IMG/VR virus record: IMGVR_UViG_3300042988_001268
Coordinates: 1-58,152 of that record
Length of the DNA stretch: 58,152 bases
Reading direction: 5' to 3' (one strand)
Source: a virus
Lineage: Duplodnaviria; Caudoviricetes
Numbering within the stretch: position 1 is the stretch's first letter; each line of letters opens with the position of its first letter. The notes under the pieces were generated by a model. The model made no database searches. It was not told the DNA's origin and saw only the letters and a list, made by a program, of their open reading frames with translations. The position numbers were made by a program, and so were the translations under genes. Positions 1,859 to 10,571 of the stretch are shown here, one piece after another.

Positions 1859-1944
1859 GGCCCTATCCCGGTTTACCGTGGCGTGCGCCTGGCTCTTGCC
1901 CGGCGCCGCCTTCCCCTATCCCGGTTTTCCGTCCGGGGAAGCGG

Positions 1945-2010
1945 AAGGCGCAAGCCTTAGCCGATCGGCATTGCCCGCGCCGATCGGACCCTATCAGGGC
2001 AAGCGAAAGG
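1945..2010 (+). ncRNA. AGGC/GCCT hairpin plus pseudoknot-SD leader copy 4
   Basis: AAGGC-GCAA-GCCTT; CCGATCGGC/GCCGATCGG stem, loop ATTGCCCGC, partner GGGCAA 1997-2002, GAAAGG. Confidence 0.75.
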
Positions 2011-2018
2011 ATAGACCA

Positions 2019-2171
2019 ATGCCGATTGACTATGCCGCGCCCATGATGCGCGATCGCTCCCGATTCCCGGCCGCCAAGGGCCGCGCCATGACGCGCCGCG
2101 CCGCGCGCCGGGAAAAGTCCGCCCGCTTGTTTCTTGCGCTGGCTTTCCCGGCCGAATTTGGGGAGCGTTGA
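2019..2171 (+). CDS. Small basic hypothetical protein
   Basis: ATG 2019 after GAAAGGA. Confidence 0.65.
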   Translation: MPIDYAAPMMRDRSRFPAAKGRAMTRRAARREKSARLFLALAFPAEFGER

Positions 2172-2174
2172 GCC

Positions 2175-2444
2175 ATGATCGATCTAGAAAAGAACGTGCC
2201 CGGCGTCGGTTGGATATTTATCCAGCCGCTTAGCCCTATCCCTATTGCAGATCGGGCCGCCTATCTTTCCGCTACCTATGGCAAGCGCGCCGCACAATTC
2301 CGGATTGTCGAGCGCGCCACTATGTCGCCAGCACGAATCCGCGCCATGGATCTAGCCGATTGGAAAGCCATCGGCCGCCCTTCCGCGCCTGTCCCTAGCG
2401 CTGCATCTGCAATCATTGCCAAATTGCGGCGGGAGCGCGGCTAA
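2175..2444 (+). CDS. Hypothetical protein
   Basis: GGGAG SD, operon context. Confidence 0.65.
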   Translation: MIDLEKNVPGVGWIFIQPLSPIPIADRAAYLSATYGKRAAQFRIVERATMSPARIRAMDLADWKAIGRPSAPVPSAASAIIAKLRRERG

Positions 2445-2620
2445 TGGGAGAGGCAACGCATATTCGCTTGCAGTACCTGCCAAGCCCTACCGCGCGCGTG
2501 TGGCGCAATTCGTCCCTGACAATGTGGGCGGCCGGCCGGGACAATATGGCGGCCACGGCCGAACGGCTGAAAGCACAAGAGGGCTGGCACGATTGGCGGA
2601 TTGTCCCGCACAATCCCTAG
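2444..2620 (+). CDS. 58-aa hypothetical protein (not in ORF track)
   Basis: TAATG coupling; MGEATHIRLQYLPSP...WRIVPHNP. Confidence 0.6.
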   Translation: MGEATHIRLQYLPSPTARVWRNSSLTMWAAGRDNMAATAERLKAQEGWHDWRIVPHNP

Positions 2621-2693
2621 CCCCTACCCGCGGCGCGCTGCAGATCGGCGCGCCGCCTATCCTGCCCCCTTCCCGGATTCACGGGGGGCGCGA

Positions 2694-2763
2694 TAGGCGC
2701 TAAGCCTAAACCCTACCGCGCGCGCCCGTCGCGGCCGGGGAACCTACCAGGGCACACGAAAGG
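2694..2763 (+). ncRNA. AGGC/GCCT hairpin plus pseudoknot-SD leader copy 5
   Basis: TAGGC-GCTAA-GCCTA; CCGCG/CGCGG stem, loop CGCGCCCGT, partner GGGCAC 2750-2755, GAAAGG. Confidence 0.7.
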
Positions 2764-2770
2764 TAAACCA

Positions 2771-8596: not shown

Positions 8597-8660
8597 CCCT
8601 ACCGCCGGCGCGCACGGCCCTACCTTGCGCGCCGGACGGGGGAGGCGTATCGAATGCAGC

Positions 8661-8774
8661 GTGATGTGGCCTTGGCGGAATTGATAGACGCTGAAAGTCG
8701 CAAGGCAAAGCTGGACGGTCTGATGGCCGGAGGACCAGCGTAATCCGTGGTTTGAGTCCCGGAGGCCGCATCAC
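8661..8774 (+). ncRNA. Anticodon-less tRNA-like RNA with 12-bp extended acceptor stem
   Basis: GTGATGTGGCCT/AGGCCGCATCAC; Leu-type D arm GCGGAATTGATAGACGC; T arm CCGTGG-TTTGAGT-CCCGG; two hairpins replace the anticodon arm; no CCA. Confidence 0.72.
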
Positions 8775-8777
8775 ATA

Positions 8778-8814
8778 GCCGGATTGCCCGACCGGCCGCG
8801 AGAGAGGGCAGGAG
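8778..8814 (+). ncRNA. Pseudoknot-SD leader copy 9
   Basis: GCCGG/CCGGC stem, loop ATTGCCCGA, partner GGGCAG 8806-8811 overlapping AGGAG SD. Confidence 0.7.
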
Positions 8815-8823
8815 AACGAGACG

Positions 8824-9099
8824 ATGAAAGACGCATCCCAAGAGGAACTGGCCAAGGTTTATCTTGGCATCTGGCTAGTGAACCGCGAACTGTTCACCGC
8901 CTTCCGCGCTGGCAATCCCGCCATCACCGCGACGATGCTGGTGAACTCGGCGCTCCCCGCGCAGAACGTGTGGAAGATGCTCGACCATGAGACGCGCACC
9001 GCAACGCGCAAGCGTATCCGAATGGAATTCGGCGGACACTGGAAGACGATCAACCCGCTTGATGATGAGTGGTGGGCGGCGCGGGGGTCAGTTCAATGA
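8824..9099 (+). CDS. Hypothetical protein
   Basis: AGGAG SD; ATGA overlap with ligase gene. Confidence 0.75.
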   Translation: MKDASQEELAKVYLGIWLVNRELFTAFRAGNPAITATMLVNSALPAQNVWKMLDHETRTATRKRIRMEFGGHWKTINPLDDEWWAARGSVQ

Positions 9100-9767
9100 T
9101 CCACACCGAACTCTGCCAACTCCTCGGCGACTGGGACGGCACCACCCCTACCGGCGGCGTCTGGTTCGAGCAAAAGCATGATGGCTGGCGCGCACTCCGG
9201 TTCGCCGGGATCGACGGCCAGGTGCGCCTCTGGACCCGCAACGGCCTGCCGATCGAGGGCACCGGACACATCCTCTGGCGCTTGGAGCAGATGGAGCAGG
9301 CCGCCGGCGAACCCATGATGTTCGATGGCGAGTTCGTGGTCGACGGCACGCTCGACGCCACGAAGCGCTGGGCGGAGAAGGGCTGGCGCGCAGGCGGTGA
9401 GGCCGGCGTCTTTCACCTGTTCGACGGGATGCCGCTCAGCGCCTGGCAGGCGGGCGGCGATCCTACCCCGCTCTACGAGCGCAAGAAGCGGCTCAAGGCC
9501 CTGTTCGACGCATCGGCCGGCGACGGATGGGAGTGGCGCCCGGGTTCGCGCGGCCGGGACGAGAACGGCCCGCCGGCGGTGCAGCTTGTCGAGGATGGCT
9601 GGGCGGCCGACGCGGGCGAGGTGATCGCTGGGGCCCGGCGTGTGTGGGCTACCGGGGGTGAGGGCTTAGTCCTGAAGGACTGGTCGAGTCCCTACCGCCG
9701 CACAAGATCGCCCGCATGGGCAAAGGTAAAACGTGAAAACTGCCACCGATGGCTGCGCGCCGCGTGA
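9096..9767 (+). CDS. ATP-dependent ligase, adenylation domain only
   Basis: KHDGWR (I), FDGEF (III), FHLFD (IIIa), EGLVLK (IV), WAKVK (V); ends about 11 aa after motif V. Confidence 0.85.
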   Translation: MIHTELCQLLGDWDGTTPTGGVWFEQKHDGWRALRFAGIDGQVRLWTRNGLPIEGTGHILWRLEQMEQAAGEPMMFDGEFVVDGTLDATKRWAEKGWRAGGEAGVFHLFDGMPLSAWQAGGDPTPLYERKKRLKALFDASAGDGWEWRPGSRGRDENGPPAVQLVEDGWAADAGEVIAGARRVWATGGEGLVLKDWSSPYRRTRSPAWAKVKRENCHRWLRAA

Positions 9768-9793
9768 AGGCTACCAGATAACAGGAGAACGTG

Positions 9794-10351
9794 ATGAGCA
9801 AGATGGATATGCCCGTCGGCATAGCAATCAACGAACTGCGAAGCGATGGAACGGTGACTGTTACTGCCGAATTTATGGAAGGGAGGATGGCGGCTCCATT
9901 CGCTCGCGTGTTCGACGCGCTGCGAAAGTTGGGCGGTAATCAGGAAGCGTATTCCATCCTCGCCGACACGGAACGGGCGCTGAAACGCGCAGCGAAGCGG
10001 GCGGAGAGCCTATCGGGGGAATGGGAGCGGGTGGAGTTCCTGCCTACCCGTGGCGCCACGGTCGAGTTCACCGGCCGGCTGCTGGTCGAGGACGAATTCG
10101 AGAGCCGGGGCCCTACCCCTATCGCCGCACACATGCAGATCTGGGAGACCAAGGGCGGCGCGCTGGTAGCGGTCGACGAGACCCAGCGGATCGGGACCGA
10201 CAGCACGCCCCGGCTTGCGGTGCTGATGGCACCCCCTATCGCGGACGTGCAGGAGCAGCGGTTCGCCGTGATGGAGCATTTCGGGTGGAGCAGCCGGGCG
10301 CGGTCTATGGCGCGCAAGTTGGGCTGGAGCCTTCGCGTCGAGGTAGAATGA
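9794..10351 (+). CDS. Hypothetical protein
   Basis: AGGAG SD, long ORF. Confidence 0.7.
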   Translation: MSKMDMPVGIAINELRSDGTVTVTAEFMEGRMAAPFARVFDALRKLGGNQEAYSILADTERALKRAAKRAESLSGEWERVEFLPTRGATVEFTGRLLVEDEFESRGPTPIAAHMQIWETKGGALVAVDETQRIGTDSTPRLAVLMAPPIADVQEQRFAVMEHFGWSSRARSMARKLGWSLRVEVE

Positions 10352-10571
10352 GGGCGGCGGCGACCGGGAACCCCCAATCCATCCGCCGCCCCATCATCCG
10401 GCGATCAACCCGGATGCCCTTGCGGGTTTCGAGGCTGCGACGGTTTCAGTGCCTGCCGATATTCAGTCGGCTTGCGATGCAATGGCACCTGCGATGACAA
10501 ACCGCCCCGACACCAGCGCCGCAGCAACGCACCCCTATCAGCGGAGCCGCGCGAGGGGAATCCCTACCGGC

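Follow-up and report, generated by a model that had tools for sequence, protein, structure and literature searches.

A one-stranded CCCTAYC array in a phage accessory operon and a candidate protein that may read it

We analysed the complete 58,152-bp record of a tailed phage genome (IMG/VR record IMGVR_UViG_3300042988_001268; Caudoviricetes), hereafter the window, in which a plus-strand accessory operon carries 28 copies of the heptamer CCCTAYC, every one of them on the coding strand. The word is under nucleotide-level selection, strictly one-stranded, confined to the operon and conserved in relatives belonging to a family of temperate sphingomonad phages, and the array co-occurs with the canonical form of an arginine-rich helix in a protein encoded by the same operon, which we call protein X. 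We propose, tentatively and with slightly less than even confidence, that the CCCTAYC sites are predicted binding sites for X, through which X would exert polar, operon-wide control of expression with feedback on itself.

All 28 plus-strand copies are at the coordinates given in a first-pass annotation of the window (1861 to 10562). That annotation expected only a few copies beyond the region, and this is what we find: there is no other plus-strand copy in the 58,152 bp, the plus-strand block at 47-58 kb included, and the whole genome has eight minus-strand copies (at 1083, 1235, 12865, 19897, 25592, 32066, 37864 and 41537), for a both-strand total of 36. None of 100 dinucleotide-preserving shuffles, with both strands counted, reached 36 (mean 6.94, standard deviation 2.64, maximum 14). 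The first-pass annotation had also named a codon-preserving shuffle under which the enrichment might vanish; the excess stays. Gene models throughout are our own choice of open reading frames (ORFs), based on third-position G+C content together with family scans (Pfam, PHROG). The 14 plus-strand gene models on which the codon-preserving shuffle was run contain 14 copies, as compared with a mean of 2.38 in the shuffles (standard deviation 1.47, maximum 9; none of 1000 shuffles was as high as 14), and they contain no antisense copy. The remaining 14 copies lie outside gene models, those at 10533 and 10562 within a doubtful ORF. Copies thus occur both in genes and in spacers, and those in genes fall in different frames, as had been claimed, with one frame dominating (ten at offset 2, three at offset 1 and one at offset 0).

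Where the word lies in genes it is spelled with rare CCT and CTA codons, against codon preference. Pro-Thr and Pro-Ile dipeptides are spelled CCT followed by AYC in 13 of 20 cases in the genes of the region, versus 3 of 84 in other genes, and CTA accounts for 8.9% of the Leu codons there versus 1.5% elsewhere. Taken together, the shuffles and the codon use identify the word as a real, selected and strictly one-stranded signal. Several of the minus-strand copies in late genes read CCC-TAC-C followed by T; these look like ordinary Pro-Tyr coding and not like members of the array. The array is local, as its earlier assignment to an "early region" implied, but that label is loose: the sites occupy 15% of the genome, in an accessory operon to the left of the end of the convergent late/lysis operon. 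The earlier observation that the array ends where the late operon ends is borne out, since the accessory operon stops against the convergent minus-strand late operon.

Shorter and variant forms of the word behave similarly, with 37 sense and 3 antisense copies of the 6-mer CCTAYC, and 37 sense and 2 antisense copies of CCCTA; CCCTAGC is also frequent. Position matrices built from 175 sites at 10 loci have a weak 3' extension, with S at +7, G at +10 in 69% of sites and non-G at +12 in 95%, and no conservation upstream of the word. On this evidence CCCTAYC would be the core of an asymmetric site of about 12 nt. A putative -35 partner, visible by eye at four or five of the first sites only, gave no signal in the position matrices and was rejected. 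Tandem copies are frequent, with spacing peaks at 19 and 25 nt. Nine of 75 sites start 0-3 nt past the stop codon of a long open frame (null mean 1.46, maximum 7 in 2000 trials), and 44% of copies, versus 27% of random positions, lie 20-150 nt ahead of the next Shine-Dalgarno sequence and start codon; there is no fixed distance between the word and that start signal. In a scan of positions 1-11500 we found one sigma-70-type promoter-like site (shuffle mean 2.2) and seven terminator-like sites (shuffle mean 11.1), neither of them above chance. As whole words, CCCTAYC, GRTAGGG, CCCTACCG and CGGTAGGG matched no paper in a literature search. A second sense-biased word, CGCACAA, occurs between positions 1500 and 10700 on the plus strand, with eight sense copies, no antisense copy and one copy in the rest of the genome.

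Related loci (denoted here by L numbers) were collected by way of two operon proteins. Among 40 loci found through the DUF3560 protein, an array is present in L036, L037 and L046 only, with a weaker one in L040, and all of these were later found to carry X. Whole-record word counts in relatives have the same local clustering. L037 retains every one of the 12 sites present in L036, including the state of the Y position, where the flanks are about 80% identical. Sites are also found in genes that lack homology between phages; the word therefore belongs to the operon as a whole rather than to individual genes. Of the viral loci found through X, eight of eight have 12-23 sense and 0-3 antisense copies, and 12 of the 14 metagenome loci have 4-24 sense and 0-1 antisense copies. 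With obvious duplicate loci removed, 20 loci with the canonical X helix (223 kb) have 311 sense and 11 antisense copies, three loci with a diverged helix (L040, L039 and L119; 38 kb) have 9 and 4, and 22 relatives in which no X was found (435 kb) have 29 and 19. Thus, the array co-occurs with the canonical X helix. X, a LigD-like ligase and a 186-aa conserved protein form a constant syntenic trio in all array-bearing operons, while the other genes vary. Only X discriminates array-bearing from array-poor operons, because the other two members of the trio also occur without an array: the ligase is found in three of the three array-poor loci L039, L094 and L088, and the 186-aa gene in L039 and L088. 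We did not detect a comparable sense-only word in the array-less relatives; the candidate ACGCTC in L039 is Thr-Leu coding. In L044, which lacks CCCTAYC, seven plus-strand copies of GCCAACT(T) lie within 1.6 kb downstream of the methyltransferase-like gene (11985-13553), and these may represent an analogous word with a different reader.

In protein X, a variable N-terminal domain and a Pro/Ala-rich linker are followed by an Arg-rich helix that is invariant, and then by a long coiled coil with a conserved ADPSQPER box. The linker-coding sequence contains five copies of the word in the window (7017, 7129, 7156, 7371 and 7396), and the X gene also holds five in L036 and L037. The helix, RT[PA]AHERA[IV]RRAW (window codons from 7418), is found in 22 of 25 loci scanned, one of these being a truncated X; it has no sequence match among solved structures. 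There are 72 detectable homologues of X, all unnamed proteins, and those named to an organism are from Novosphingobium or Sphingomonas. About 14 of the 72 have N-terminal DnaN beta-clamp domains (PF00712, PF02767) fused to the coiled-coil part, as do the versions in L046 (5230-7506) and L039 (2938-5370), whereas the window X is without a clamp domain. ESM Atlas and PDB profile searches with X returned nothing usable, and a model of the N-terminal domain (pLDDT 72.8; best structural Z 3.5) had no convincing match. Queries of viral contigs with the whole protein, and then with its C-terminus, gave no confirmed relative, and an alignment query then succeeded. Similarly, a metagenome scan with alignment A5 gave no confirmed X relative, and a scan with alignment A7 yielded the 14 loci described above.

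These parts suggest how X might act. The Arg-rich helix would read the coding-strand word, either in the nascent transcript or in DNA, and the coiled coil would allow dimers or larger assemblies to bridge the frequent tandem sites 17-29 nt apart. Operon-long occupancy could then control, depending on orientation, how RNA polymerase passes or what becomes of the mRNA. We suggest that X also feeds back on its own expression, because the X gene always carries several sites. A hairpin that presents the word as its loop adjoins the ATG of X. We infer that X binds the word, that its target is DNA or RNA, and that expression is affected. Several features point towards RNA, namely the sense-only orientation, the G-free word, the flexible tandem spacing, the sites just outside translated frames, the ribozyme-rich setting and the Arg-rich helix of X. 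The beta-clamp fusions of X and the neighbouring ligase point towards DNA, in which case the likeness would be to the stoperators discussed below. As a possible but doubtful extension, X and the array may constitute a new kind of operon-wide polar control that gates a fast-evolving accessory operon of anti-defence type, with sites that may also be cassette-exchange breakpoints. The sites bracket variable genes and domain linkers, and X is clamp-linked in some lineages.

A number of observations weigh against the proposal that X reads the word. Indications of the level of action conflict, with the clamp fusions pointing to DNA, and the Arg-rich helix and ribozymes to RNA. Comparison of local folds revealed no RNA structure common to the sites. 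RNA accessibility of the word is above that of all 7-mers (p 0.0005) and not above that of G-free, C-rich composition-matched controls (p 0.28), and display in hairpin loops (stems of at least 5 bp) is weakly enriched, at 13 of 75 sites versus 9.5% of other positions; accessibility and hairpin display therefore give no decisive signal for the RNA level. X has no Pfam or PHROG family and no known fold. Moreover, X loci were found with peptide patterns derived from the Arg-rich helix itself, and therefore only canonical helices were findable, and the association between X and the array is confounded with the shared descent of a single operon module. Lastly, L088/L090 has six sense copies in 10 kb and no X detectable by tblastn, and L116, which is truncated downstream of X, has a canonical helix and only three copies in the 6 kb on the upstream side.

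Among the closest known systems are the stoperators of cluster A mycobacteriophages, which are likewise many short asymmetric sites, oriented with transcription and often located in short intergenic spaces. One phage protein reads the stoperators; by analogy, X is the candidate reader here. As reported in those parts of PMC9283540 that concern stoperator orientation, L5 stoperators no longer affect elongation once they are inverted, and orientation follows the direction of transcription. The same relationship between orientation and transcription is found here, both in the window operon (28 sense, 0 antisense) and over the 20 loci with the canonical helix. Stoperators differ in being 13-mers that are distributed genome-wide and are bound by a monomeric immunity repressor with a helix-turn-helix and a stoperator domain. 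By contrast, the sites described here have a 7-mer core, are limited to one accessory operon (1861-10568), lie inside gene models in half of the cases (14 of 28), and have as their candidate reader a protein with a coiled coil and an Arg-rich helix, whose gene is itself part of the regulated operon. The N/nut system of lambdoid phages is also similar, in that a protein with an Arg-rich helix, typical of N-type antiterminators, is made from its own operon, the sites are on the transcript strand, and the operon is long and extends beyond the integrase region to accessory genes. The first-pass annotation had offered an RNA-binding or antitermination site as one alternative; in general form this is still possible, but the nut-type layout of boxA plus boxB is not seen. 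Lambdoid phages have few nut sites, each with boxA and a boxB hairpin, whereas there are 28 sites here without a common hairpin; X is also far larger than N, mostly coiled coil and sometimes fused to a beta-clamp.

The first-pass annotation also suggested a KOPS- or Chi-like polar signal, which would be read by a host translocase or by RecBCD/AddAB. KOPS and Chi resemble the array word in being polar, one-stranded short words, and the word has a G-rich complement; the likeness of that complement to KOPS proves slight, with the full KOPS sequence GGGNAGGG being spelled on the other strand by only 3 of 28 copies (2622, 6163 and 10111, each followed by C). KOPS is over-represented in the host chromosome and replichore-skewed towards dif, and Chi, which attenuates the nuclease and stimulates recombination, is among the most over-represented host oligomers and is co-oriented with replication. 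The heptamer, by contrast, is neither over-represented nor replichore-polar in host chromosomes. In five Sphingomonadales genomes, which are hosts of related prophages and not of the window phage itself, the word occurs 195-252 times per strand, versus 474-660 times for a reversed control; it is about three times rarer and is therefore not enriched as KOPS or Chi would be. The replichore skew that had been put forward as a check is absent, with 82 forward and 64 reverse copies of CCCTAYCG in a complete 3.05-Mb chromosome, and 70 of each in a genome with a 3.76-Mb contig; the two strands are interleaved over the full length in the listed subset of places, which covers 100 of 146 in the first case and 100 of 140 in the second. 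The word is also limited to 15% of the phage genome and is missing from related phages of related hosts. A KOPS/Chi-like signal is thus already contradicted on two defining genomic features, and we consider its probability close to negligible; the motif is instead restricted to one lineage of phages, in which it accompanies a phage protein. It is very improbable, too, that the word has no function of its own, either arising from codon or mutational bias or being carried along as a short tag on repeatedly inserted gene cassettes. Such a tag would fit with sites that bracket variable genes, and with the recurrence of extended versions at unrelated places (CCCTATCCCGGTTCATGGG at window position 6546 and at 2340 in L046), but not with the excess that survives the codon shuffle, the spelling against codon preference, the retention of 12 of 12 sites between two relatives with flanks that are 80% identical, the copies inside conserved genes, or the ratio of 311 sense to 11 antisense copies over 20 loci.

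Three other explanations would give the word a function without requiring X to act as we propose. We think it unlikely that the word is an X-independent signal for RNA processing or stability, with CCCUAYC recognised by a host or phage ribonuclease or RNA-binding factor and punctuating the operon in the way that hammerheads do. Strict sense orientation would be expected, because it is automatic for any RNA signal, and the operon has both tRNA-like elements and two type II hammerheads that meet the RF02276 gathering score and are predicted to self-cleave. The ribozymes start a few bases past a stop codon, and their ends lie 25-35 nt ahead of the following start codon (that at 5474-5551 begins 4 nt after the upstream stop codon and 16 nt after copy 5458, with a Shine-Dalgarno sequence and ATG at about 5565), and the copies of the word located 0-3 nt after stop codons (9 of 75 sites) can be counted on the same side. 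In addition, the spacer after the methyltransferase-like gene has a sub-threshold hammerhead in L039, L040 and L046 versus a motif-bearing hairpin in the window, L036 and L037. Accessory or anti-restriction-type genes with type II hammerheads between them are a known arrangement in alphaproteobacterial prophages: the portions of PMC3088659 (Perreault et al., 2011) that deal with prophages describe hammerheads that flank single prophage genes, many near integrase genes, with tail, ardA, marR and integrase genes in the context of an Agrobacterium example, and propose that hammerheads process long phage transcripts. The heptamer differs from these elements in that it is not part of a ribozyme and is far more frequent than ribozymes. 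Furthermore, half of the copies are in coding sequence, including five in one gene that cleavage would destroy, and accessibility gives no signal beyond base composition. Relatives without the motif do not have more ribozymes, with none at the gathering score in seven loci (127 kb). Since the hosts are related, the restriction of the word to one lineage speaks for a factor encoded by the phage. Alternatively, the word could be a minimal, -10-only promoter for one class of transcription, with X as activator or specificity factor, by analogy with the clamp-coupled late promoters of T4. T4-late-type promoters are short -10-only elements at a fixed short distance from the transcript start, and they depend on a sigma-like factor, a co-activator and the sliding clamp. 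A motif of about 15 bits that is sense-only, limited to one transcription class, absent from the host and without a conserved upstream element would be in line with this, as would copies that bracket variable genes, their excess 20-150 nt before the next Shine-Dalgarno sequence and start (44% versus 27%), and the fusion of X to DnaN beta-clamp domains in relatives; use of a sliding clamp in late transcription is documented for phages Mu and T4, as described in the relevant part of PMC12867686. We nonetheless consider a promoter improbable, given that the distance to the start codon is not fixed, that there are 28 copies for about 15 genes, with five in one gene and pairs only 6-29 nt apart, that Pfam names no sigma-like or RNA polymerase gene in the window, and that the window X lacks the clamp domain. 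There is similarly little chance, in our view, that the copies mark single-strand nicks in the virion DNA, of the kind known from T5, phiKMV-like phages and tf, which the ligase would seal after infection and which might promote shuffling of variable genes. Those phages likewise have a short consensus on one strand and a ligase gene, and their consensus varies between related phages. According to the section of PMC3517423 on nick sites, phage tf has 14 TACT/RTGMC sites, on the top strand only, and phiKMV-like phages have CGACxxxxxCCTA/CTCCGG, whose core CCTA/CTCCGG is partially like the word; a subset of the array, CCTATCCCGG (four window copies), resembles this core (CCTACTCCGG). The LigD-like ligase is always in the operon, as is a beta-clamp in relatives, and the sites bracket non-homologous genes. 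However, the nick systems are not reported as operon-confined in that section of PMC3517423, whereas the copies here are dense, often tandem, limited to one operon and co-oriented with transcription, which nicking does not require. Nicking at tandem copies 6-29 nt apart on the same strand would set short oligonucleotides free, array-less L039 and L094 have the ligase too, and no nickase was identified, the HNH gene having no match in the array-bearing relative G001. We know of no cleavage at the heptamer.

The genome as a whole is that of a temperate phage of a Sphingomonadales host. Window genes have prophage relatives in Novosphingobium, Sphingobium and Sphingomonas genomes, megablast found no close phage relatives, and among sequencing runs the window DNA is matched in three DNA runs, all freshwater metagenomes, and in no listed RNA run. 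The record is 60-68% G+C and is organised into a minus-strand late/lysis block and two plus-strand blocks (Table 1). Pfam names no helix-turn-helix repressor family in the window, and the sole repressor-like ORF (41872-42366; phrog_362) has no match in G001. Apart from the DUF3560 protein, the methyltransferase-like protein and the ligase, the genes of the accessory operon are without a Pfam or PHROG family. The ligase consists of a nucleotidyltransferase domain only and always follows X. For the 186-aa protein, a fold search gave nothing convincing (model pLDDT 87.4; best structural Z 5.5), and weak PARP WGR-like rows are a lead only. The true start of the operon is not fixed, because neither strand of positions 1-1600 has an ORF with raised third-position G+C. 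The hammerhead within this ORF-poor leader is flanked by the only two antisense copies of the word in the region (1083 and 1235). The tandem tRNA-like elements, which could be RNase P/Z-type punctuation or remnants, are below the gathering score in every match (tRNA 28.1 versus 29; YrlA 29.9 and 28 versus 69), and ARAGORN called no tRNA; copies 8283 and 8302 directly follow them. There are no Rfam matches in the other 46 kb of the window. In the composite hairpin after the methyltransferase-like gene, CCTACC (4732) pairs with GATAGG (4783) and the loop holds motif copy 4752, labelled copy 2; the outer helix is kept in four of four sequences, with only one pair changed on both sides. At the left end of the window there is a conserved element that three independent contigs start or stop 32-33 nt from, pointing to an att-type junction or to a physical end. 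Its GGTAGGACCC sequence was considered as an array-linked operator while it was known, among the first 86 loci, from array-bearing ones only, and was rejected when it was found in array-less L094 and L097. Two further observations concern the late block. Within a 1775-aa gene, 14222-15497 on the minus strand consists of three tandem units of about 474 nt, units 1 and 2 being 95-100% identical; these correspond to three repeats of DUF7359 in a large tail protein that has similarity to fibronectin type III. The other is an approximately 1.7-kb stretch (34124-35796) that separates the head genes from the terminase, where G+C is lower (0.597 for the 34-36 kb bin) and no ORF passes the third-position G+C filter.

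Table 1. Features of the window and corresponding elements in related loci; positions are those of the window unless a locus is named.
Feature	Position	Strand	Details
CCCTAYC array	1861..10568	+	28 copies, all on the coding strand (37 if CCTAYC)
Accessory operon (second plus-strand block)	~1.6-10.4 kb	+	meets the end of the minus-strand block head-on
Late/lysis block	~45.3 kb down to 10.7 kb	-	lambda-type large terminase, portal, S49 protease, decoration protein, major capsid protein E, podophage-type adaptor, large tail proteins, endolysin
Other plus-strand block	47-58 kb	+	exonuclease VIII-like and other recombination genes, Ros/MucR regulator, HNH protein, DNA methylase, tyrosine integrase, PAPS-reductase-like protein
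Left-end element	1-50	+	conserved; contains GGTAGGACCC (34-43)
Left-end element in relatives	L036 818-870; L037 3405-3457; L046 797-849; L040 6522-6574; L096 1-50		
Hammerhead type II ribozyme	1139..1212	+	ORF-poor 1.6-kb leader; RF02276 40.3 bits, gathering score 37
DUF3560 protein gene	2771..4105	+	444 aa; one copy of the word (3816)
Methyltransferase-like protein gene	4102..4704	+	200 aa; phrog_9133, phrog_6263
Composite hairpin	4732..4788	+	spacer after the methyltransferase-like gene
Composite hairpin in relatives	L036 3807-3858; L037 7103-7154; L046 2315-2370		copy 2 in or near the loop
Hammerhead type II ribozyme	5474..5551	+	RF02276 42.4 bits, gathering score 37, E 4.9e-6
Hairpin next to X	6541..6557	+	word (6546) is the exact 7-nt loop; 5-bp stem; word starts 14 nt before the ATG of X
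Protein X gene	6560..8092	+	510 aa; candidate reader of the word
Tandem tRNA-like/Y-RNA-like elements	8121..8281	+	two perfect GGGTTCGAATCCC T-arms
Hairpin	8605..8635	+	10-bp stem, copy 8618 in the loop; copy 8597 directly after the upstream stop codon
ATP-dependent DNA ligase gene, LigD-like	9069..9767	+	PF01068 E 1e-10; phrog_114; NHEJ (nonhomologous end-joining) ligase models; two copies of the word
186-aa conserved protein gene	9791..10351	+	last gene of the operon; three copies of the word
Ros/MucR regulator gene, phage-encoded	52352-52744	+	E 3.4e-44
HNH gene	53775-54194		no match in array-bearing relative G001
PAPS-reductase-like protein gene	56790-57734	+	adjoins the integrase gene

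To our knowledge, it is rare for short one-stranded sites to be arrayed across a whole operon and to have a dedicated reader, and mycobacteriophage stoperators are the main worked example. If X does read the CCCTAYC word, the array would be a second case, unrelated to mycobacteriophage stoperators, in alphaproteobacterial prophages, with a clear candidate reader that lacks a known fold. One protein and one 7-mer make a directly testable pair, and the canonical X helix together with a sense-only array provides a signature for finding such operons in genomes and metagenomes. The setting is an accessory region punctuated by hammerheads, and how such regions are regulated has been asked ever since the ribozymes were discovered in them. 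If the sites also guide gene shuffling or nicking, the system would bear on how phages diversify their accessory and anti-defence genes.

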